Counted from the first letter of the stretch, positions 5,520 through 58,999 are shown. The stretch: 64,000 nt of DNA from Octopus vulgaris (GCA_951406725.2 OX597835.1:33046001-33110000), one strand, 5' to 3'. A program made the numbers and translations. Notes: generated by a model from the sequence alone, not told the origin.

Positions 5520-5752
5520 AAGGCGGCGAGCTGGCAGAAACGTTAGCGCACCGGTCGAAATGCTAAGCGGAATTTCCTCTGCTGCTACGTTCTGAATTCA
5601 AATTCCGCCGAGGTCGACTTTGCCTTTCATCCTTTCGGGGTCGATTAAATAAGTACCAGTTACGCACTGGGGTCGATATAATCGACTTAATCCGTGTGTC
5701 TATCCTTGTTCGTCCCCTCTGTGTTTAGCCCCTTGTGGGTAGTAAAGAAATA
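5520..5752 (+). mobile_element. SINE family B monomer inserted in a minus-strand family C SINE (~5445-5900)
   Basis: aaggcggcgagctggcag head, gttcaaattcc-like B box, gactttgcctttcatcctttcggggtcgat core (resembles the Meta/Nin-type SINE core), tail agccccttgtgggtagtaaagaaata. Confidence 0.9.
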
Positions 5753-8359: not shown

Positions 8360-8516
8360 ATACTTGCCATCTCTATATGGTTAACCACTAAGGGTGGGTG
8401 TTACTGTAGCTTGTAGCCGCAGGAAAACATCGTCTCCAGCTGGCTTTAGGCACACTTTCTGTGCCCTTATGGTTTTGCAAAGGGAGGTCACCTTTCCCTC
8501 GTCAACCTAAGTGATA

Positions 8517-8933: not shown

Positions 8934-11900
8934 TTAAGCTGGGTTACTCTCACCCACCTTTCTCATCACATCCTTCCAACGTTCCATATACTCTTTCTTT
9001 GGCAGGCTCCTCTTCTGCAACCCCATCTTGCTCTTCAGATGATATCCGAAGTATTTTAACAAACCGGGGCCAGAGATAAAGGACCCTTTCACTAGACCTT
9101 CCACTCTAGTTCTCCATACACACTCTTTCAATACTGCCACCGTACAGTAAAAACAAGCCTTACCTTCCTTTGAGAGTCCAGTTGGCGGTATCATCTTAAT
9201 CATAGATCCAGCCGACAGCTGTACTCGTCCCAGATGCGACAACACGTGTTCAACGTAACTTATCAAGCCTGACAGCTCCCGACATTGTACAAAAGCGTGT
9301 TGAACGGTTTCATCGTCCAACCCACATCTTGGACACGTCGGTGGCACTGACATTCCGTGTCTGGATAACTTCTCGCGAACAGGTAATGCATTCCTATAGC
9401 ACTGCCAGGTCAGGGATATTTAGTAATTATCCAAATACCCCGACCTGAAAGTCTTCTTAAACAGGTTGGAGAGTTGATCCTCATCGAACCCCAGAACCTT
9501 TCCTAGGACGTCGTCATTTTTCCTTCTACCAGCCCTTTACCGAGGTGGTATTCCCGCTGCCGGTTTTGCCCATCTTGTGGATCAGCCAGAGTGCCTGTCG
9601 GCACTCCTTCTGCCATGAAGTCAGGTTACGTCCTTTAATGAGACTGGGTGTAAATCCCTCCATAGAGGCCGGTCGCGGGAAGAATTCCTCTGCCAGCGAA
9701 CTCCACACCTTACCATCCTCCAGGTAACACCAGAGGTGTCTCAGCCTCAACGCATGCTTGCGCATCATTAGCCAAGGCATCCCCAGTCCACCCTTTAGCG
9801 GTTCCTGGCAACACACGGAGCGTCTCACAAGTGGCTTTCCTCCTTTCCACAAAAAGCGGAAAAGGAGTCGTTCCAACTTGTTTAACCACGAATCGGGGCA
9901 CGGCACGACGGTCAGGCGGTAGGTGACGACAGAGGCTATAAACATCTGTGCCACCTCCGCTCTCCCTTTCAAGGAAAGATGCCTTCCGGACCACTTCCGT
10001 GCTATGGCATCCACCTTGCTCGTTACCTCGCTCCAATTCTTCTCCGTCTGGGAGTCTGGACCAAACCAGACTCCGAGCAATTTAACAGGACCATCCGTCC
10101 AGTGTCCAACAACACTGGACGGTATCGGGTTGTTCCTCCAGGTGCCGAAGCGCAAACCGATGAACTTGTTCCTGTTAACTTTTGCCCCTGCCACCGCTTC
10201 GTATCTATGGAGAGCACCTGGTAACCGAGGTAGCTGGGTTCCGTTGGACACGATGAGGGTGACGTCATCCGCATAGGCAGAAACAGACTTACCGCATCCG
10301 ATCTCATTAGGGTTGCCTCCCAACTTCTCCAGCTTCCGCAGCAATGGCTCAAGAGCCAAAACATACAGGAGCGGGGACAAGGGGCACCCTTGACGAACTG
10401 AACGCTTGATCGAAAACGGCTTCGTTAGGTAACCGTTTATCTGGACTGTGGACTTGATGCCGCTATACATAGCTGAGATCCACCCGCAGAAGCTAGGGCC
10501 CAGCCCAGCCGCTTCGAGGACCGCCGCCAAGTACCGATGGTCTACCCTATCAAACGCTTTACTTTGGTCTAAATGGACCAATGCCCCTCCTTTGCCGTCT
10601 AATTTCCCGACCCTATCTATAGTGTAGCGGAGAAGGTGAAGATTATCCTGGATCGACCTGCCTGGGATTGCACATGTCTGTGCCTTCCCGACAAGTTTCT
10701 CCACGACAGCCGTCAACCTTTTTGCTAACACCTTGGCCAAAATCTTAAACTCTACATTAAGTAGAGTTATGGGCCTGTAATTACTAATACTGTCCCCCTT
10801 GCTCGGGTCTTTCTGGACCAGCGTCACAACTCCCCGACTCACAGAGCTGGGAATCCTCCCATTCTGTTGCCAGTTTGCATAGACGCTTGCCAGTATGTCC
10901 CCGAACAAGTCCGGCATACAACAATAAAATTCATAGGGCAGACCATCCAACCCCGGCGACTTTTCCCCGGCGCACTCGGCCATAACCCCTCTTACCTCTG
11001 CGGGAGAGATCGATCCTTCACAGCACTCCGCCTCACCTGCCAAGAGCCGAGGCCCACCAGCTAGGAAGTCCTTTAAGGTCTCCCCACGCTCGAGCGGACC
11101 ACCGCCCCCAAACAGCCGTGCGAAATGCTGGTGAAGGACCTTCTGCATCTCCTCCTGTCCATAGATCTTGCGGACCTGCTCGTCGGTTAAGAACATAATA
11201 CAGGACTTTTTGCCCTTCTGACTCTCCTCACGACAGGCCCATCCGGCAACGTTAATACCTTCTCGTTTTCCTGCACGTAACTTAGCTCTGACTCTACACT
11301 CCCTCGTGCTTGGCGTTGAGGTGACGGTACAATACCGCTCTCGCTGCCAACACTCCGGATGCACAGCCAGATTCCATAGCCTCGTCGAAGTTCTTAACTA
11401 ATTCGCCCTCTATTCTAGTCCTATCTAAACTTAGCTGCTTGCTAAATCTAATGGACTCCAAACGGATGGCTCTTTTGAGGGCGAGCCACCATCTATTATC
11501 AATGATGGTGCCACATAATGCCCTCTGTACTAATTCCTTAATCCGGGTACGGAAAGCTTCACAAGTCAAAATAGACTTGTTCATTTTCCAGTACCCGGGA
11601 CCTTGTCTATGGCATTTATCTACCTGTACCTCACACGTCACAAGTTTGTGATCCGTGTAAGGCACAACAGAGAATTGTGGACAGCTAACACTATTCCTAT
11701 CTCGTTCCTTAACAAATACTCTATCTATGTACGATCTGCGTGAGCCGTCATTATTACTCCACGTCCACTGTGGAAAGTTCGGCTCATCCAGTCGAAAACG
11801 GTCTACTAGATTAAAGCTCGCTAGTAGAGCCTTGAGGCCAGGATTCCCCTTCCTATCGCTCGAGCCTACACCATCCACCCGCGCATCGAGAATGGTGTTG

Positions 11901-12315
11901 AAATCCCCTACCAAAACTACCGTTTTGGACGTCACTAGAAAGTGCTCCAGTTCCCGAAAAAACCGGTCTGCCCACGTCCATTAGGAGCGTAGACAGCCAC
12001 CAACCTGAAGGACTGCTTACTCACGTGCGTCACATCTAGGACAACCAGCCTACCTTCTGGGTCCAGAAAGACAGTACTTACCTGTAAGTCCAAGTTCTTC
12101 CTGAAAAGAACTGCCACACCTGCACCTTCCTCTCGGCTAGGAGAAATAAATTTCTCGTAACCATTGAGAAGTGGTGAGAACGCTTGGGGTCCTTTCATCT
12201 TGGACTCGGTAACAATAGCTACATCGATTCTATGTGAAATGAGGTCGTCCCGAAAACAAGCCTGTTTCCATTTCGATCCCATTCCACGCACATTTATACA
12301 ACCTAACTTAATCAT
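8934..12315 (-). pseudogene. ORF2: APE endonuclease, reverse transcriptase and zf-RVT, broken by ~3 frameshifts and a stop
   Basis: INVRG, VYAPN, LVGDFN, IDRVF, TDHK (APE); KSPGLDG, NYRPITLLN, LDQSKAFDRV, RQGCPLSP, YADD (RT); CPRCG..ETVQHAFVQC; split over ORFs 11935-12315, 11294-11935, 9526-11364 and 8934-9353. Confidence 0.95.
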
Positions 12316-12329
12316 CGAGAAAAAGAAAA

Positions 12330-13806
12330 TTATTTACTCACGGTTGCGAGAGGGAGCCTGACAGATTCCTTCTGCCTGTCTCCCCCACTCGCCGTTGCTG
12401 CTGGGTGTTTCACCGGCGTTGCCACCGGGCTCTGGGTTGGTGTGGCTGCCGGGCTGACGTATAATTTCCCAGTTGTCACCTCCTGGGTGACATCCTTAAT
12501 GAAGCCGCCTTTTGCGAGGTCTTGTAAGTTTTTTTCCTTTCCATCCTTCTTCGCCGCCCCTGTCAAATCGCCACTCCGCTTCCTTCTCGGTCGCTTTGTA
12601 GCATCTGATCTGCGTACTTGCTTGCACAAATTTTACTGCTCTCTCGTTCCTTGTGGTGTATGCTATAATTTTATTCATTGGGTTTAAACCCTTTTACAGT
12701 TGGGGGGTGGGGTTTGTTAAAGTGCTGGCCTATAAATGTAGTACCGCCGGGGTGGGATTGGAGAATATTTTTAATTTGTTCGTCTGCGTTGTTTTTTTTT
12801 GTTACGGGTGGGGAGTCAGGGGTGATGGATTTTTTCCTTTTGTTCGACACGTTCGTGAATTCCATCTCTTCTTGTATATTTGTTTTTGTTGTATTAATTT
12901 CCTCCGCCTTTCCTTTCTCATTTTGCATTTCGTTCTTGTCTTCCTCCTTTTTGGAGTTCGACCTGTTTATTTTTTCCTCCTTGCTTTCGCCAGTCGTTAC
13001 TTTGTTCTCCACTTTGCTGCTTTCTGCGTTCTTCACAGCGTTTTGTGGGGGGGGGGGGGGCCCGTATTATTTTTCTTTTTGCAAACGGAGCGCACGTGGC
13101 CCTTTTGCCCGCACTTAAAACATCTGGGCCTGCGTCCTTCCACCGAAACTCGTATGGAGTGTCCCTCCCCCACGAAGACTCTGTCTGGTAGGCTTTCCAG
13201 CGTCGCATTTTCCGCCTGGATAATCATCTCCACCTGCTGGCCTCTCCAGTGTTTTGCAATTTTCTTCTTCATACTCAAAATTGTCAATTTTGATTCAACA
13301 TCAAAAATGACCGCTGTTGCCGCCCACATCACGTCGTAGCCCCTTGGTATATCTTCTAGGGTCACTTTTGCTGTTCTGCACCCTAAATATAAGGGTAGCA
13401 GTATTATATTCTCGTTTTTCAACGTTTGCGTCGAAATTTGCCTTGCTTCTTCCGCCGTTTCAAAATGCGCCTCCATTGTAGCGCTTCTTGCACCTCGGTT
13501 GACATGACGAACTTTACTCCATATTGGTGCCATACACTTTTCGACCATTTCGTTTTTTACGTCGGTCATTCGTTTTTCTTTTATATTGTATACCTTATAG
13601 GTGACCATTTTTTCCCTTATTGCCTGTATAGTCTCAGGGGGCGGTACCAATCGTGTTTCTTCACCACTTTTTTGCACTAGCGGTCTGAACTTGAATAGTC
13701 TCTCCATTGACACCTCCATTTCTTCCACTTCGCCACCTACGACGTCTGAAAAACTGGGTTTTGCTTGTGTTTCCTTTTGTTTAACAGTTGTTATACCTTC
13801 ACCCAT
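12330..13806 (-). pseudogene. ORF1 gag-like protein with CCHC zinc knuckle, frameshifted
   Basis: RCFKCGQKGHVRSVC followed by a K/E-rich region; frameshift at the G-run ~13047-13060 and near 12650; ends 15 bp before ORF2. Confidence 0.85.
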
Positions 13807-13903
13807 CTCGGGAAAGTCTTTTTTGAACTTAAGTCTAATTCCATATTAGACAACATTTTCAAAAATAACCTATACAGGTTAAGAGTTCACGTGAAATGAG
13901 TAC

Positions 13904-14654: not shown

Positions 14655-15072
14655 AAGGCGACGAGCTGGCAGAAACATTAGCACACCGGGCGATATGCTT
14701 AGCGGTATTTCGTTTGCCGTTACGTTCTGAATTCAAATCTTGCCGGGGTCGACTTTGCCTTTCATCCTTTCGGGGTTGATTAGATAAGTACCAGTTACGT
14801 ACTGGGGTCGATGTAATCGACTTAATCTGTTTGTCTGTCCTTGTTTGTCCCCTCTATGTTTAGCCCCTTGTGGGTAGTAAAGAAATAGGTATTTCGTCTG
14901 CCGCTACGTTCTCAGTTCAAATCCCGCTGAGGTCGAATTTGCCTTTCATCCTTTCAGGGTCGATTAAATAAGTACCAGTTACACACTGGGGTCGATATAA
15001 TCGATCTTAATTCGTTTGTCCGTCCTTGTTTTTCCCCTCTATGTTTAGCCCCTTGTGGGTAATGAAGAAATA
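14655..15072 (+). mobile_element. SINE family B dimer
   Basis: Full unit plus a second unit starting at ggtatttcgtctgccg; TSD agtactcgatgatg / agaacttgatgatg. Confidence 0.88.
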
Positions 15073-21295: not shown

Positions 21296-21519
21296 ATGAT
21301 AACATAATTTATTGTCATCTAATTGCTTTGTGCACCCTGGAGAAAATGCCAAAAACTGAAAACTATATCGTGTAGCATTTCGAAAATCAGATTTTCTTGT
21401 TACCAAACCTTCCTGTGAAGAATATATCGTAAGAGTATGGTCTGCCATGTGATTGTATGATCTGATAGAAATAAGATTGTTACCCACTCCGAAGAATAAA
21501 ATCGCATAAAATCTAGCAC

Positions 21520-22702
21520 ATCAAATTCCTTCCATCTGTTTACAAGCTTTTTAATACCATCAATGTAAAATTCTTTTGGTTTCAAAGCGAAGAACTCTGA
21601 AATGTCAGATTCGACTTTCTCTTGGGTTGCGAAAGTTATGTCCCACAAATGATTCGGTAAACTACGAAACAAATGGTAGTCTGAAGGAGTAAAGTCGGAA
21701 GAATAAGTTGCATGAGGATTTTTTTCCCAACCAAACCCTTCGATATTCTTTGATGTGATCTTTGCAGTGTGCGGTCGTGCATTGTCCTGATGAAACATCG
21801 CTCTTTTTCGATTCACTAAAGCGGGTCATTTTTTCTTCAAAGCTTGGTTAAAACGCTATAAATGCTGACAGTTCTTGAGCATTGATTGTTACATTAGGTA
21901 GTAACAATTCAAAGTGAATTACTCCTTTGCAATCCCACCAGATAGGGAGAAGAATCTTTTTCCCATGAACTTCCCTTCTCGTTTATGGTTCAGCTTTTTC
22001 CCTTTTACCAAGCCACTGTTTGTGACGTTTAACATTTCGATAGAAGATCCATTTTTCGTTACCAGTCACAAGCCTATCCCAAAAGGGTGAAATGAGTTCG
22101 CGAGAATGGAGAAAAGTGCAGATGTTAACTCGTGATTTGCGGTTGCTTTCGGACAATTCATGAGACACCTATTTTCCAATTTTAGGAATATTTCCAAGTT
22201 ATTGAAGAGGACGATGAACAGTTGTATGGTTTGAACTAAGCTGTATTGCCAATTCTTGAGCTGATAATGCAGGATTTCCTTCTAGTAATGCCTCAAAGAG
22301 CTCATCACCAAACTCAACTGGACGTCTTGTTTGATCTTCATCTTCAAAGCTGAAATCTCCACTTCTGAATTTTACAAACCATCTTCTGTAAGTTCTTTCA
22401 TTCAAACAGTCTTTCCCATAAACTGAGTGTATGTTTCGAGTCGCTTCAGCTGCAGAGTTTCCTTTCTTGTACTCATAAAGCATTATGTGCCTCAAATGCT
22501 CTTTGGATACGTCCATGTCAGAAAGGATTTTAATCAAAGTAATTTTAATTCTATTATTTTGTAAAATAATAATTAATTACTTTAAATGTACATAAATACA
22601 CAAAAACAATTTTCAATTCCATTAGACATTCTAAAATGCTATTAAATTTCATTCAATTTAAAAAATGGGAAAATCGGACAGAACTTATGGTTATGATCTG
22701 AT
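21520..22702 (-). mobile_element. Decayed mariner (Mos1/SETMAR-like) transposon
   Basis: HLRHIMLYEYKKGNSAAEA HTH, SHELS, LVTGNEKWIFY, FHQDNARPH, YSSDFTPSDYHLF in three broken ORFs; one TIR-like end at ~22670-22702, other end not found. Confidence 0.92.
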
Positions 22703-22784
22703 ATTTAAAATAGGTTTTAAATAAGGACAGAAGAGGAGGGTCTTTCGATTGAGCTCAACAGACGACATATGAATAAGTATATGT

Positions 22785-23007
22785 TTTTTATTACCCACAA
22801 TGGGCTAAACATAGAGGGGACAAACAGGGACAGACATTAAGTCCATTACATCAACCCCAGTGCTTAACTGGTACATAATTTATCGACCCCGAAAGGATGA
22901 AAGGCAAAGTCGATCTCGGTGGAATTTGAACTCAGAACGTAGCGGCAGACGAAATACGGCTACGCATTTCGCCCGGCATGCTAACGGTTCTGCCAGCTCA
23001 CCGCCTT
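22785..23007 (-). mobile_element. SINE family B
   Basis: Full head to tail; TSD acatatgaataagtatat / acatataaataagcatat. Confidence 0.88.
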
Positions 23008-42039: not shown

Positions 42040-42269
42040 ATTTCTTTACTACCCACACGGGGCTAAACAAAGAGGGGACAAACAAGGACAGACAAAGGGA
42101 TTAAGTCGATTACATCGACCCCAGTGCGTAACTGGTACTTAATTTATCGACCCCGAAAGGATGAACGGCAAAGTCGACTCGGCGGAATTTGAACTCGGAA
42201 CGTAACGACAGATGAAATACGGCTACGAATTTCGCCCGGCGTGCTAACGTTTCTACCAGCTCGCCGCCT
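42040..42269 (-). mobile_element. SINE family B with 14-bp TSD
   Basis: tgtcatgcatatat at 42026-42039 and 42270-42283. Confidence 0.9.
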
Positions 42270-47282: not shown

Positions 47283-47989
47283 TAATCAGTGATAGTCGAG
47301 GAACTGCGGTCAAAACGAGTGTTTAGTGTTTTAACATGTTTATTATGGATACAGGCGCCAAGAGCCATGCCAGTTATCATAGCGGTTACAGAATGAATAA
47401 AACAGCTTCATGATGGATATTTGATGTTGGGTGATGGTCTGCTAAAAGATCCAGTGAAATCAGTTTGAAGGCAAGATCTTTTTTATCTGCAATGAGGAGA
47501 CGAAACCTGGTTTCATCAGAATTTAGTAAATCTGTGTAGCATTGCAGCTGTGAGCGTATGCACAGTAATCCTTGTGAGTTAGATCAATGTTTTCTAAAGA
47601 CAATTTGCAAATAGTAGTGCCAGCTCTCCTGTGTTACAATTACGTCATTCAATAACTTTTATTTCAGAAGTACAATACATGACATGAAGCAGTAAATATT
47701 TATCCAATGAACTGCGTGTAAGAGATGTCGTCACGAATCTCAGCACACGCTACTAATGCCTCGGTTGTTTCTTCTCTAAAGGCTCCTCAATCCATTTGAT
47801 TATGTAATCAATTATGGAATCAACAGATGTTAATTAAAGAGATAATAGTTTATTTTAAGTGAGAACAACAAGATTTATTTTTAAGGTAGAATAGATGCTT
47901 GCTATACAATCGTACCTTTCCTACACTGAATTCAAAACGATAGACCAACCTCAAAATTCTTCTGGAAATCAAATAATGTGCTGTAACAT

Positions 47990-48166
47990 GAATGCTACGT
48001 TTTATTTTCTATAAGCACAATACTACGGGCTTCTACAAAAAACTGCAGCTTTATATACTTGTACTATAAGCAAAGAACTATAGACTTCTGCTACAATCAG
48101 ATTACTACGTCCTTCTACTATGACCACACTACTATGGACTCCTACAGTAACAATAATACAGCTGGC
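47990..48166 (+). repeat. Degenerate ~27-bp minisatellite that resumes at 51621-51730
   Basis: Units such as cttctactatgaccacactactatgga and cttctgctacaatcagattactacgtc. Confidence 0.7.
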
Positions 48167-48568
48167 GGATCTTTTCGGTTTGAACGGCAGTTTTTAACAT
48201 AAATTCTAGGTAACTGAAAAATGTTAAACTTCGTATACTGGTAGAATGTGTTTATAAAACATCTTTTTCTCTTGGCTTTCTATAGTTTGTAAGATATTTG
48301 TTGTTTTTTTCTTCAATTTCTGCAATTTCAACCAATCACTGATGTCTTTTGAGGTAAAAAAAACATTCTGTGCCATAAAAACATTCTGTCCCTCGTTTAA
48401 GAAACAGATTGGTTTATTTACATTTGTGAAGAAAAAAAGATACACTTCCCCCCACCCATAACCCTAAAACAGATTGAAATGCAATAGATCGATACTAGGG
48501 TCATAATTGTGGGTGACAATTTCATATGACACCGCTAGAAAAAACTGTCGTTCAAACCGAAAAGATTC
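48167..48568 (+). mobile_element. MITE copy 1 (29-bp TIR), left end of the composite unit
   Basis: ggatcttttcggtttgaacggcagttttt ... aaaaactgtcgttcaaaccgaaaagattc. Confidence 0.92.
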
Positions 48569-48930
48569 CATTCGGTTGTGCAAATTCTTTGCACGGGAAA
48601 CCTGCCCTGTGTGACGTGTTTCCCGATTTTGTAAATTTGTTTTCGGCTTTCCTAGCCATTTCTGTTTTGAGCATGGAGTCTTCAAGCCATGAAGTCGTCG
48701 TTGCGAAGAACACCGGTTTCCTTGACAACGCCTACGACAGTGATTTCCATACCCTGCCTTCACCACAGCTTCATGAAGGGGGGGGAGAAGGGGAGGAGCG
48801 ACACAGGTGCAGTTGTGAGCATGAACACCAACACTGCCGCCACCGACACACGAAAAAATTGAAAGGACCCAGACGACAGCTTCACAGTCAACTACGGACA
48901 ACTCTGCCGCAAACATCACCATCACCACCA
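48569..48930 (+). mobile_element. Putative Tx1 5' UTR / ORF1-start fragment
   Basis: Repeated at 49060-49435 and 51030-51179; MESSSHEVVVAKNTG frame; followed by (CTAT)n. Confidence 0.55.
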
Positions 48931-48947
48931 CTGTCTGTCTGTCTGTA

Positions 48948-49002
<55 letters not shown>

Positions 49003-49059
49003 ATCTATCTATCTATCTATCTATCTATATATCTATCTATCTATCTATCCATCTATCTA

Positions 49060-49540
49060 TGTAAAAGTTTTGCAACAACTAATACATTCGGTTGTGCAAA
49101 TTCTTTGCACGGGAAACCTGCCCTGTGTGACGTGTTTCCCGATTGTGTAAATTTGTTTTCAGCTTTCCTAGCCATTTCTGTTTTGAGCATGGAGTCTTCA
49201 AGCCATGAAGTCGTCGTTGCGAAGAACACCGGTCTCCTTGACGACGCTTACGACGTTGATTTCTCTACCCTGCCTTCCCCACAGCTTTATGAAGGATGGG
49301 AGAAGGGGAGAAGCAGCACAGGTGCAGGTGTGAGTATGAACGCCAACAACGCCACCGACACACAACAAATTCAAAGCACCCAGACGACAACTTCACGGTC
49401 AACTACGGACAACTCTGCCACAAACATCACCATTGTTGTTTTTTTTTTTGCTTTTTTCTCTTCCCCCCCCTCGAAAAGAAAAACTCTACATTGTAATTGT
49501 CCCTTCTGTATTTAGCCCTGTGTGGCCAATAAATAGATTA
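49060..49540 (+). mobile_element. Short non-autonomous element: putative 5' part fused to a Tx1 3' tail, flanked by (CTAT)n
   Basis: 3' ~90 bp match 50665-50750. Confidence 0.7.
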
Positions 49541-49592
49541 TCTATCTATCTATCTATATATCATTATCACTCTTTATCTATCTCTCTATCTT

Positions 49593-49679
<87 letters not shown>

Positions 49680-49741
49680 CTCTATCTATCTTTATCTAAC
49701 TATCTATCTATCTATATGTCTGTCTGTCTGTCTATCCATCT

Positions 49742-50752
49742 ACGTCGACGAGGAATACCTGACCCGCCTGTATGGGACGACTTTCGGGCCAGGGCCCATG
49801 GACAGCTTCCAGAGATCCCTGGCCTGGCAGTGCTACCGAGAAGCGCTACCCGTTCGGGATAAGCTCTACAGATACGGCTCGAGAAACACGGGGCCGACCT
49901 GCCCGAGATGCGGTCAGAGCGACGAAACCGTTCTGCACGCACTCGTGCAGTGTCCAAGAATTTCCGACCTGTGGGCTTGTGTCGAACAACTGCTGTCACG
50001 TGTGGGACGAGTCGGTTTATCAGCTGAGTCTATCGTCAATATTGTCACGCCTCCTTCCTTCAAACGGGAAGGAAGAGCTATTTTCATCATCCTTGTGGCT
50101 ATGGCGAAAGAATGTATCTGGTGGACGCGTCTGAAAGGATTGGAGACAAACACTTTCCTCTCTGGTCAAACTCTCATCAACTTCTTCAAGTACCACTTGA
50201 AAAGGAAAGTGAGAGTAGAGAGGCAAGTTTTGTCTAGCGAACGTTTTAAAAAAAGATGGGTGAATGTAGCAAGGATGGCACGTATGAATGACGAAGCCAC
50301 CTTTCTGGGTCCTATGAACCCAGAAATTGAAAACAGAGGGTTACCCACTTGCAAACAAATGTGGTAACATATAACAATATTGACCGAGGTTACCGTGGTC
50401 TTTTTCGTAGGCTTTTCTTCCCACGGATAAACCTTACTTGCTTTCCCCTTTACACCATACATCATGACACTGTGATACACGATCCCTATTGATGGTTTTT
50501 TTTTCTCTTCCCCTTTTTTCCTCTTTTCTCTTCTTTTTTCATTTTTCTTTGCTTTTGTTCCTTTTCCCTCTTTTCATTTTTTTTCTTTTCCTTTTTTTTC
50601 TTTTTTTCCTTTTATTTGTTGTTTTTTCCCTTTTACGATCCCTTTTGATCGAAAACCTACGCCACTTTTTTTTTTCTCCCCCAAAAGAAAAGCTCTACCT
50701 TGTAACTTGTCCCATCTGTGTGCAGCCCTGTGTGGCATATAAAGAAACTTTT
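49742..50752 (+). mobile_element. 5'-truncated Tx1-like LINE (second family) in (CTAT)n
   Basis: SLAWQCYREALPVRDKL..TCPRCGQSDETVLHALVQC..KECIWWTR..FKYHLKRK, homologous to the ORF2 end at 8934-9500; T-rich 3' UTR. Confidence 0.9.
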
Positions 50753-50829
50753 CTATCTATCTATCTATCTCTCTATCTATCTTTATCTATCTCTCTATCT
50801 ATCTTTATCTAGCTATGTATCTATCTTTG

Positions 50830-50865
<36 letters not shown>

Positions 50866-50884
50866 ACTGTCTATCTATCTATCG

Positions 50885-50925
<41 letters not shown>

Positions 50926-51179
50926 CCTATCTATCTATCTACCTATCTCATGGACGGACGATAGTCACATCGGCTCGTAGTAAGTTTGCCCTTTACTGCC
51001 TTTAAAAGTTGTGTATTGTATTGTCTTTTTTATGTAAAAGTTGTGCAACAACTAATACATTCGGTTGTGCAAATTCTTTGCACCGGAAACCTGCCCCGTG
51101 TGGCATGTTTCCAGATTTTGTAAATTTGCTCTCGGCTTTCCTAGCCATTTCTATTTTGAGGATGGCGTCTTCAAGCCAT

Positions 51180-51620
51180 GATTCTTTTCGGTTTGAACGG
51201 CAGTTTTTTAAAATAATTTCCACGTAACTAAACACTTTTAAACTTTGTATACTGGTAGAATGTGTTTATCAAACATCTTTTTTTCTTGGCTTTATTGAGA
51301 AAATTCTATAGTTTGTAAGATATTTGTTGTTTTTTCTTCAATTTCTGCAATTTCAACCAATCAAATACGTCGATTGAGGTTAAAAAAACATTTTGTGCCG
51401 TATGAATATGTCCCTCGTTTAAGAAACAGATTGGGTTTATTTACATTTGTAAAGAAAAAAAGATACTCTTCCACCACCCCTAACATGAACCCGAACCCTA
51501 ATTCTAACCCTAACCTTAAAACAGATTGAAATGCAATAGATCAATTCTAGGGTCATAATTATGGGTGACAATTTCATATGACACCGCTAGAAAAAACTGC
51601 CGTTCAAACCGAAAAGATCC
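51180..51620 (+). mobile_element. MITE copy 2, right end of the composite unit
   Basis: Colinear with copy 1; ends aaaaactgccgttcaaaccgaaaagatcc; internal ccctaa-like repeats at ~51478-51517. Confidence 0.92.
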
Positions 51621-52597
51621 CAGCTGGCTTCTATTATGACTGAATTATGTACTTCTATTTATCAATGTACTATATACTTCTATATCCACTGAACTATAAC
51701 CACGTTGCTATCTGCTTCTACTGTAAATACAGCGCCATCATCCGGTTTCTGTGTCTGTAGAGGAGATAACCAATCCGAAATGCTTGCATCTCACAGTATG
51801 GATAGGTGGCGCAGCGAGCTGATTCAAGTGTATTTACACCATTTGTCTACAGCGAAAAAATTCCTCCAAGAAAAAAAAACACAGTGAATGGCTTATTTAC
51901 AGGTCCGAACGAGCTACTGGTATATTCGAACTAGTAATAAAAGGGCATTTGTAAATACCGTGATATGTAGTTCTATCTTGACTAAAAACTGTAATTCTAC
52001 TATAACCACTGTACTATAAAAATATATTATACACATCTGCTATGAATATGTTGACTATGCTACAGCTTGGCCTTAACTTTAATAGCTAAAAGATACTAAA
52101 TAAATACGTTTATTCTTCTTATAGAATAATTATTAATCGTTGTTATAACAACTGTGACTAATCGTTGTAATATTGTTTGTCTTTGAGCAACATCGACTTT
52201 CAATTGTAATTCTATTTCAGACGATAATCATAAATTAATTCAGGATTCTGTTAAAGTCACATAAAATTACAGAACTAAATCAATTACACAAACTTTAAAT
52301 GCGCCAAAATTCTCCAGTTGCTCATCACAACTAACATATTTTTGGAAAGAAATGTAAGTCAAAAACATTGATCAATATCAAAGACATTGTCGGCAAATTC
52401 CTATGCAATATATGTTTCCAGAATTAAATAAGTGACCGTAAGATCGTCACATCAAGATCCTACAGCTGTCCTACTATATAATCATTTAGAGATTTTAACT
52501 GTTTCTGTCTCCGTTATATCATTAATACGTGACTTCTGCACATTTTCATTGTTCACAAACTTTATTTCCTTCTAATCCGATTTTGGCTCGGTAATAC

Positions 52598-53550
52598 AGG
52601 TCCTAAATCTTAATTTAAATCTTGGTGATCATTCCGATGATCAGGTTTGATGCGAATTCCTCGTTGAGGAACTGATAACACTTTCTTCCAGTAGACTTAA
52701 TTCCGCTCATCGAGAGTCTATTCTAACATTTCCAATCTATTTATGCTTCAGAACACAGAGGAGAGATCTAAAACAACGGCAGATCAAAAACGTTATTCGA
52801 AATCCTTATTTCTTCTTGCTAACTCACTTTTCTCTTTTCTTCTTTTTTTCTATTTTACTTTCTTCACCTGTGAGGGATTATTTATGAGTTTGGCGCTAAA
52901 TAATGAAGACCCGGAGATAACCACCATGTCGATATTGGGACATGGTTTCGCGTCATAGATTCCTTTCCGTAAAAAGTAAAATTCGCATTTTTTCAAACTT
53001 ATTTCAGTTAACTAAAAGAACTTTTGACTTAGTTAAATATGTCTATCGTCTTTAATCACTGTTGTTTTGTCCCACCCCCATAAAAGCAGTTTTTAAAAAA
53101 TTATGTTAAATGAAGCGGTGATAATTGAATAACAGAAAAGAATTATTCTGTTGTGTCTGGAGAGAGTCATTTTCTTTTTGTGCCTTACAAAGTAACACAC
53201 TCACCGGTAAAAGTTCCACACAAGGTCCTAAATCTTAATTTAAATCTTGGCGATTATTTCGATGATCAGGTTTGATGCGAATTCCTCGTTGACGAACTGA
53301 TAACACTTTCTTCCAGTAGACTTAATTCCTCTCACCGAGAGACTATTCTAACATTTCCAATCCATTTATGCTTCAGAACACAGAACAGAGATCTAAAACA
53401 ATTGGAGAACAAACAAGTTATTCAAATCCCTTATTTCTTCTTGCCATGTCACTTTTCCCTTCTCTTTTCTGGTTTTTATGTTATTCCAACGGTGAAGGAT
53501 TATTTATCTGTTTGGTGCTGAATAATGAAGACCCAGAGATAACCACCTTG
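52598..53550. repeat. ~330-bp direct duplication (52598-52930 and 53223-53550)
   Basis: aggtcctaaatcttaatttaaatcttgg...aataatgaagacc..gagataaccacc in both. Confidence 0.9.
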
Positions 53551-56500: not shown

Positions 56501-56954
56501 GAATCTTTTCGGTTTGAACGGCAGTTTTTTCTAGCGGTGTCATGTGAAATTGTCACCCATAATTATGACCCTAGTATCGATCTATTGCATTTCAATCTGT
56601 TTTAGGGTTAGGTTTAGTTAATGTTAGTTAGTGCTAGTTAGGGTTAGGGTTAGGGGTGGGGGGAAGGGTATCTTTTTTTCTTCACAAATATAAATAAACC
56701 CAATCTGTTTCTTAAACGAGGGACATATGCATACGGCACAGAATGTATTTTTTACCTCAATGGACGTCAGTGATTGGTTGAAATTGCAGAAATTGAAGAA
56801 AAAAACAACAAATATCTTACAAACTATAGAATTTTCTCAACAAAGCCAAGTGAAAAAGATGTTTTATAAACACATTCTACCAGTATACGAAGTTTAAAAT
56901 TTTTTAGTTGCCTAGAAATTATGTTAAAAACTGCCGTTCAAACCGAAAAGATAC
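56501..56954 (-). mobile_element. MITE copy 3 (opposite orientation) with internal TTAGGG tract
   Basis: Same TIRs; ttagggttagggttagggg at ~56638-56656; no TSD seen. Confidence 0.92.
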
Positions 56955-58899: not shown

Positions 58900-58999
58900 N
58901 NNNNNNNNNNNNNNNNNNNNNNNNNNNNNNNNNNNNNNNNNNNNNNNNNNNNNNNNNNNNNNNNNNNNNNNNNNNNNNNNNNNNNNNNNNNNNNNNNNN
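58900..58999. other. Assembly gap (100 N)
   Basis: Run of N; tagataatg occurs on both sides. Confidence 0.99.

Follow-up and report, generated by a model that had tools for sequence, protein, structure and literature searches.

Two MITE (miniature inverted-repeat transposable element) copies found in the genome of Octopus vulgaris bracket other repeat DNA and share a single target-site duplication (TSD). The locus lies in a stretch of 64,000 nucleotides (GCA_951406725.2 OX597835.1:33046001-33110000), called the window hereafter; positions are counted from its first letter. The whole unit spans 3454 bp, of which 2611 bp are cargo between the left MITE (L) and the right MITE (R). The pair has the anatomy of a composite transposon, or macrotransposon: two elements of the same family lie in direct orientation around other DNA, and the TSD is found outside the outer ends only. 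We consider it moderately likely that L, R, and the intervening repeat DNA moved as one such composite by means of the outer ends.

Structure of the unit and its target site

The MITEs and the target site are arranged as follows. Copies of a dispersed repeat in the cargo and some sequencing runs carry the same labels, and are referred to as copy X1 or run X1.

48009-48166, + strand: degenerate 27-bp minisatellite, left part, the target site; lag-27 identity 0.50 on this left part
48159-48166, + strand: left TSD copy, CAGCTGGC; unchanged in the contigs of runs X1, X15, and X4
48167-48568, + strand: left MITE (L), 402 bp; outer terminal inverted repeat (TIR) at 48167-48195 equal to the family majority end; inner TIR at 48540-48568 with 2 mismatches, ending GATTC
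51180-51620, + strand: right MITE (R), 441 bp; inner TIR starting GATTC, with 2 mismatches; outer TIR at 51592-51620 perfect
51621-51628, + strand: right TSD copy; the minisatellite continues from here to about 51700

The 8-mer CAGCTGGC directly abuts the outer TIR pair on both sides, as a first-pass annotation of this DNA had stated. All 29 bases of 48167-48195 agree with 51592-51620 when the latter is reverse-complemented; beyond them, the two diverge. Just one further CAGCTGGC occurs on the + strand of the window, at 8437, and none occurs between L and R. No flanking duplication of at least 4 bases was found around L alone or R alone at any boundary tried, which bears out the claim that the inner ends lack matching TSDs; at TIR-defined boundaries, the inner flanks have just the three bases CAT in common. 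The inner junctions, aagattc/cattcggttg and caagccat/gattctttt, read as the annotation gave them. The 8-mers of the outer TSD and beside both inner ends (48159-48166, 48569-48576, and 51172-51179) all start with CA (3/3, post hoc). This is possibly a target preference, into which the solo MITE copy described below does not fit. The sole run of N in the window (58900-58999) is remote from the unit.

Both MITEs are full length. Their identity is 91.2% (362 of 397 ungapped columns), and no switch of haplotype between L and R occurs over columns 1-384 of the 458 in the alignment. Based on the 35 differences and the lack of a switch, L and R are distinct copies rather than one duplicated copy. A variable telomere-like CCCTAA tract lies inside the MITE at 51476-51512 in R and at 56600-56660 in the solo copy, and is mostly deleted in L.

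The unit had been proposed to interrupt the minisatellite at 48166, with the array resuming at 51621. When 48166 was joined to 51629 computationally, Tandem Repeats Finder reported one array of 8.7 copies with a period of 27 that spans the join; the host sequence is thus continuous once the unit is removed. Matches across the join at lags of 27/54/81 numbered 11/24/32 when one 8-mer was kept, 7/13/24 when both were, and 7/14/15 when neither was. In a phase test of 36 offsets, offset 0 scored 0.43 and was tied by offset +22, a result that is supportive but not unique. The chance of an 8-base match at fixed boundaries is approximately 2.6e-5, and 0 of 537 in-phase pairs of 8-mers within the minisatellite are identical. 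The target site was also considered as a coding exon and rejected as such: stops break all three + frames of the computed empty site. A further short patch resembling the 27-bp minisatellite lies at 51985-52065.

The cargo consists of three copies of the dispersed repeat, X, three (TATC)n tracts, and 3' ends of long interspersed nuclear elements (LINEs):

48569-48922, + strand: copy X1 of repeat X, lacking its 5' part and cut exactly where L ends on its inner side; 91% identical to copy X2 over 354 bp; multi-copy by depth
48948-49060, + strand: (TATC)n microsatellite
49058-49433, + strand: copy X2 of repeat X, which runs into a LINE-like 3' tail
49434-49538, + strand: this LINE-like 3' tail, 80% identical to that at 50666-50750
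49539-49742, + strand: (TATC)n microsatellite
49745-50750, + strand: 5'-truncated LINE fragment comprising the C-terminus of open reading frame 2 (ORF2) with zf-RVT (PF13966, E 6e-8), then the 3' untranslated region
50752-50948, + strand: (TATC)n microsatellite
50950-51179, + strand: copy X3 of repeat X, lacking its 3' part and cut where R begins; 10 differences to copy X1 in 124 bp

In the coordinates of repeat X, the cut points overlap: the last 122 bp of copy X3 correspond to the first 122 bp of copy X1. Copy X2 and its tail are likely an internally deleted LINE derivative. The LINE fragment appears L1/Tx1-like by its structure, and is 60.7% identical over 463 bp (at 9028-9487) to a longer EN/RT LINE at 9-14 kb that itself carries RVT_1 and zf-RVT. 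Judging by position, these LINEs may target TATC. The 82-codon frame of copy X2 had no protein homologue among 270 candidates and no Pfam match, and these same searches lent no support to repeat X as a LINE ORF1 or 5' end.

The copies of repeat X are mosaic. Specifically, copies X1 and X2 differ at 2 of 149 positions (48569-48717 versus 49085-49233), then at 24 of about 200 (Fisher p 1e-4), and share a rare allele (A) at 48614; the low-difference stretch is likely a conversion tract. Copies X3 and X2 differ at 1 of 53 positions, then at 12 of 98 (p 0.034), a pattern that would fit a crossover there and also local conversion as between copies X1 and X2. The LINE tails at 49474-49533 and 50698-50750 resemble one end of the commonest short dispersed repeat in the window, with 74-76% identity over 40-55 bp; this repeat is like a short interspersed nuclear element (SINE). 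The sites of this repeat that are alike to the cargo LINE tail are 42041-42087, 5699-5750, 14839-14885, and 22784-22823, as if the cargo LINE family were the partner of the SINE-like repeat.

The MITE family in the window and in public sequencing runs

Of the 24 public runs listed, 17 held part of the stretch. Contigs of four of them (X1, X15, X4, and X16) were mapped to 47290-48925, that is, to the left flank, L, and copy X1 only. Statements on loose ends and pieces refer to those listed.

In runs X1, X15, and X4, which represent three studies and two organism labels, one contig extends from the left flank into the TIR by 14, 25, and 25 letters, respectively. These contigs have no break at 48166 and no difference in the TSD or TIR, and none of them presents an empty allele at the left junction. 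The flank contig of run X16 ends at 48100, short of the junction. The left end is thus filled in three of four runs, with the proviso that the 14-25-letter overlaps are below the 31-letter rule for a bridge and that contigs cannot link across the MITE. Run X1 has 0 differences to the window and may be the source of the window. Runs X15 and X4 share an identical set of 12 differences in 902 positions, all in the flank. As they also share the left end, this end predates the 1.3% split. The contigs argue against a false left junction. As regards misassembly, a possibility that the annotation had raised, the left junction stood in three runs and no N was near the unit, but no listed record spans it.

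The sequence specific to copy X1 (48753-48896) is present in run X1 with 0 differences. No near-identical cargo piece was found among the 8 pieces listed for run X4 or X15, and the depth of non-G letters at 48614 was 246 in run X1 versus 40 and 34 in runs X15 and X4; for both comparisons, contigs drop rare variants. Neither the listed pieces nor the depth at 48614 gave evidence of a 1.3%-diverged haplotype without the cargo. The shares of words found in runs (0.80 and 0.51) were rejected as a means of discriminating between models, since the flank by itself would give 0.55 and 0.36, the remainder being common to the family.

Behind 48566, the loose ends start with CC in 87, 97, 136, and 116 contigs of the four runs, from which the majority ends of the family are GGATC and GATCC. 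The loose ends that precede 48167 vary in sequence (agreement 0.4 in 74 and 78 contigs). Because of this heterogeneity and the unrelated flanks of other family copies, CAGCTGGC is a target duplication, as had been proposed, and not part of the element consensus. Compared with the majority end, the outer TIRs have 0 and 0 mismatches and the inner TIRs 2 and 2; the chance that all four mismatches would fall on inner ends is 0.06, which is suggestive only. Within the window, 4 of 6 MITE ends deviate at position 2.

The window contains three family copies in 64 kb, and the summed depth of the MITE in three runs was 17,000-71,000 times that of the flank, a rough figure that gives an order of magnitude and no copy number. 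The family is very abundant, at roughly 10^4-10^5 copies. Head-to-tail MITE joints occurred in 3, 8, 7, and 4 contigs of the four runs. Copies of the family insert into one another and pair head to tail, and its abundance is enough to supply many close direct pairs. In many contigs, the 5' end of the MITE (48167-48172) follows its interior or 3' end (48295-48566). A GTATC-type start recurs in two runs.

The third family copy stands alone:

56501-56954, - strand: solo MITE copy; ends GTATC/GATTC; no TSD

Its identity is 94.5% with L and 90.7% with R. A TSD search across 16 x 16 boundaries of this copy returned just 4-5-base A/T matches, off the ends. The first-pass annotation had set beforehand that solo copies lacking 8-bp TSDs would count against its reading, and the duplication is absent at this copy (1/1). 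The flanks lengthen its inverted repeat by 4 bases to a 33-bp inverted match with 1 mismatch. The copy could represent a variant with longer TIRs, the product of recombination, or a blunt insertion within a palindrome. Scans for the TIR yielded 0 matches in metagenome contigs and 0 in viral contigs. Four loci found with a shorter TIR pattern were dismissed as chance, the match ending at 20-22 bases. The TIR sequence also had 0 matches in a supplementary summary table of PMC13282606.

Origin of the unit

If the unit is a composite, its MITEs would each have entered a donor locus singly, with repeat X copies as targets, and these insertions would have carried their own 8-bp TSDs, CATTCGGT and CAAGCCAT, at what are now the inner sides. 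Once the inner ends of both MITEs were damaged, the outer pair would have been the substrate that could still be used. A transposase provided in trans would then have cut at the two intact outer ends and carried the pair as a unit, leaving the flanking halves of the X1 and X3 repeats at the donor. The exact cuts of copies X1 and X3 at the inner MITE ends support this account. Within it, the spacer quite possibly had its full 2611 bp on arrival; there is a small chance that it measured 122 bp and grew afterwards through recombination in a stretch of repeat X with 26 identical bases. The annotation had the 3454-bp unit arriving in one event. The cargo is indeed foreign to the site and composite movement is the most economical explanation, but the full 3454 bp may have come about in more than one event, as a 965-bp form may exist.

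Several observations weigh against composite transposition. Neither a donor locus, an empty allele, nor a second copy of the unit was seen in the 64-kb window or in the contigs of the four runs, which cover the left part of the unit. The right outer and left inner junctions are in no listed record among the contigs mapped to 47290-48925, and the contigs that do reach the left end fall short of the bridge rule, one of them from the run that may underlie the window. The solo copy, with no TSD and with ends other than GG, indicates that damage is not confined to the inner ends of the unit. Differences private to R number 0 in the last 72 columns versus 19 in the approximately 340 before (p ~0.016, post hoc), with the reservation that an interior run of about 80 R columns is likewise free of them. 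The longest perfect block between L and R (38 bp) falls in those last 72 columns, where a late crossover would need it. Finally, both inner junctions lie in one repeat, 122 bp apart in its coordinates, a coincidence for independent insertions 2.6 kb apart.

In a different history, a resident solo MITE would have made the TSD. A break in it, or its excision, would later have been mended by copying an ectopic MITE-cargo-MITE template, or a circle released from such a donor would have recombined into it, with no composite jump. Perfect outer and degenerate inner ends would fit a young resident and an older donor, the 38-bp block and the private-site gap permit the crossover, and the mosaicism of copies X1 and X2 (p 1e-4) shows that conversion occurs among repeats here. 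Replacement at P elements is a parallel for such repair, for which our literature search gave no relevant paper. Most single-copy Pack-TIRs of animals arose without transposition (PMC8277862). Yet there is no haplotype switch over 384 of 458 columns, and the same two-MITE donor would still be required, together with one or two recombinations between copies 9% apart. We consider this history rather unlikely. The circle entering a resident MITE, which the annotation had offered as its second route, stays viable only if the crossover fell within the final ~74 MITE columns.

The annotation missed a further route, a tandem double insertion (TSD-L-TSD-R-TSD) whose inner break was filled by templated copying of the X region, replacing the middle 8-mer. 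Double insertion is a common source of dimers, whose inner TIRs are often damaged (PMC5932611), and head-to-tail joints are known in this family. At the X3/R junction, two bases (GA) overlap and the MITE end departs from the majority, and a 122-bp filler would account for both junctions lying in one repeat. A third CAGCTGGC between the copies was not found, although the filler could have replaced it. The inner end of L, however, is complete and equals the 3' end of the solo copy, and the route requires two rare events; we judge it improbable. We give still less credence to a replicative cointegrate or sister-chromatid transposition, or to two independent insertions with a chance 8-base match, which are scarcely tenable. 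A cointegrate does yield two direct copies around foreign DNA, but predicts near-identical copies and a matching inner TSD, where 91.2% identity and CAT were observed; chance would produce the match with p ~2.6e-5 and would not restore the minisatellite. Copy divergence, inner flanks, and the minisatellite test largely refute both.

An assembly artefact, in which the true allele is shorter and 2.5 kb were looped in via repeat X, is very unlikely. No listed record spans the unit, and the start of record 5 of run X1 coincides exactly with the X overlap's first base, which is what a short form would give. However, a contig start at that base needs two real predecessors, one being the native upstream sequence of copy X3, so the right side of the long form exists. 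Moreover, the X1-repeat-specific sequence occurs in run X1 without differences, no N lies near the unit, and two MITEs within one TSD would remain in any case.

Record 5 also bears on whether a short form exists beside the long one. It comprises 152 letters and aligns to 48569-48692 from its first letter with 10 differences, equal to the count for copy X3, and 28 letters left over. These leftover letters would fit the X3-R junction. In a graph with k = 31, the window form alone gives a contig starting at 51054 (156 letters); adding a form with L joined to the last 122 bp of copy X3 moves the start to 51058 (152 letters), as observed. The depth of record 5 was 75, versus 53 for the flank and 35 for the piece specific to copy X1. 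A 965-bp form, L-122 bp-R, may thus exist as a deletion allele, an ancestor, or another locus; for a deletion allele, one recombination within the 26 identical bases of repeat X suffices. Since the contig start fits the short form, the 2.6 kb did not necessarily come in a single event. It is conceivable, if doubtful, that the mobile unit is this compact composite, moved as a pair by virtue of its damaged inner ends and present at more than one site, and that here its spacer took in 2.5 kb more. If so, with 10^4-10^5 family copies, paired jumps would be a routine and countable shuffling of kilobases in this genome.

Comparison with known systems and other features of the window

The annotation had described composites as less often documented for animal MITEs; eukaryotic precedents, namely maize macrotransposons and Drosophila foldback composites, are closer than this implied. 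In maize Ac/Ds macrotransposons, as in the octopus unit, the ends of two elements bracket host DNA within one 8-bp outer TSD, and Ac macrotransposons excise and reinsert with 8-bp TSDs (PMC9910405). The maize cases belong to the hAT superfamily, measure 10-28 kb, and were followed genetically (PMC9910405), whereas the octopus unit is a natural 3.5-kb relic of two non-autonomous MITEs whose movement is inferred. The Ising TE of Drosophila melanogaster, DNA between foldback elements, is likewise an animal composite built from two copies of a TIR element, but it spans hundreds of kilobases and has long foldback arms (PMC6431247) in place of 0.4-kb MITEs with 29-bp TIRs. Animal Pack-TIRs also hold foreign DNA, enclosed by a single TIR pair and a single TSD. 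They can form without transposition, and most such captures in animals are the work of repair (PMC8277862). Their filler interrupts a single element, whereas two whole elements bracket the octopus cargo; in this strict sense the unit is no Pack-TIR. An intact dimer from double insertion has a third TSD (PMC5932611), which the unit lacks. It also differs from a replicative cointegrate, with its identical copies and inner TSD, in the 91.2% identity of L and R and in sharing only CAT at the inner flanks. Bacterial composite transposons, including MITE-flanked ones, are known. They resemble the unit in having two direct copies, cargo, and one outer TSD, but the octopus cargo is LINE and microsatellite debris with no selectable gene.

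The annotation had assigned the MITEs to Merlin-type or hAT-type elements. Merlin elements have TIRs of 24-462 bp with terminal GG and TSDs of 8 or 9 bp (PMC8101967). The outer ends and the read majority start with 5'-GG, the 29-bp TIR is within this range, and the TSD is 8 bp at the composite; no TSD is present at the one solo copy. Merlin (18 families) and MITEs are annotated in Octopus vulgaris (PMC13282606). No DDE_Tnp_IS1595 transposase frame was found among 8 frames scanned in the window. Membership of this family in Merlin is unproven. The 8-bp TSD would also suit hAT. The short TIRs of hAT elements start with a pyrimidine and then A, a rule from which the GG ends of these MITEs depart.

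In the open-access literature, we found neither a natural MITE-pair composite in a mollusc nor this TIR, a weak negative as subscription papers and Repbase/Dfam lie outside that scope. Composite behaviour is itself already known from maize and fruit flies, and the octopus case is a further example. As a composite, it would be a clean relic, left in nature, of animal MITEs transposing by paired ends; small-scale rearrangement by this route is documented mostly in maize and Drosophila. The single case carries little weight by itself, since its cargo comprises LINE fragments and microsatellite only and no effect on a gene is shown. Direct pairs with an outer-only TSD would provide a simple genome-wide measure of how often a very abundant MITE family moves neighbouring DNA.

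The window is repeat-rich animal DNA whose SINEs are of an octopus type, and no tRNA genes were found in it. A near full-length L1/Tx1-like LINE at 8934-13845 (- strand) has an ORF1 with a weak CCHC knuckle, an endonuclease-like frame, RVT_1, and zf-RVT, with several broken frames. A broken mariner transposase remnant with an HTH_48 match lies at 21400-22576 (- strand). Finally, a local direct duplication (52598-52928 and 53223-53550) is 87% identical over 332 bp, its copies being 625 bp apart.

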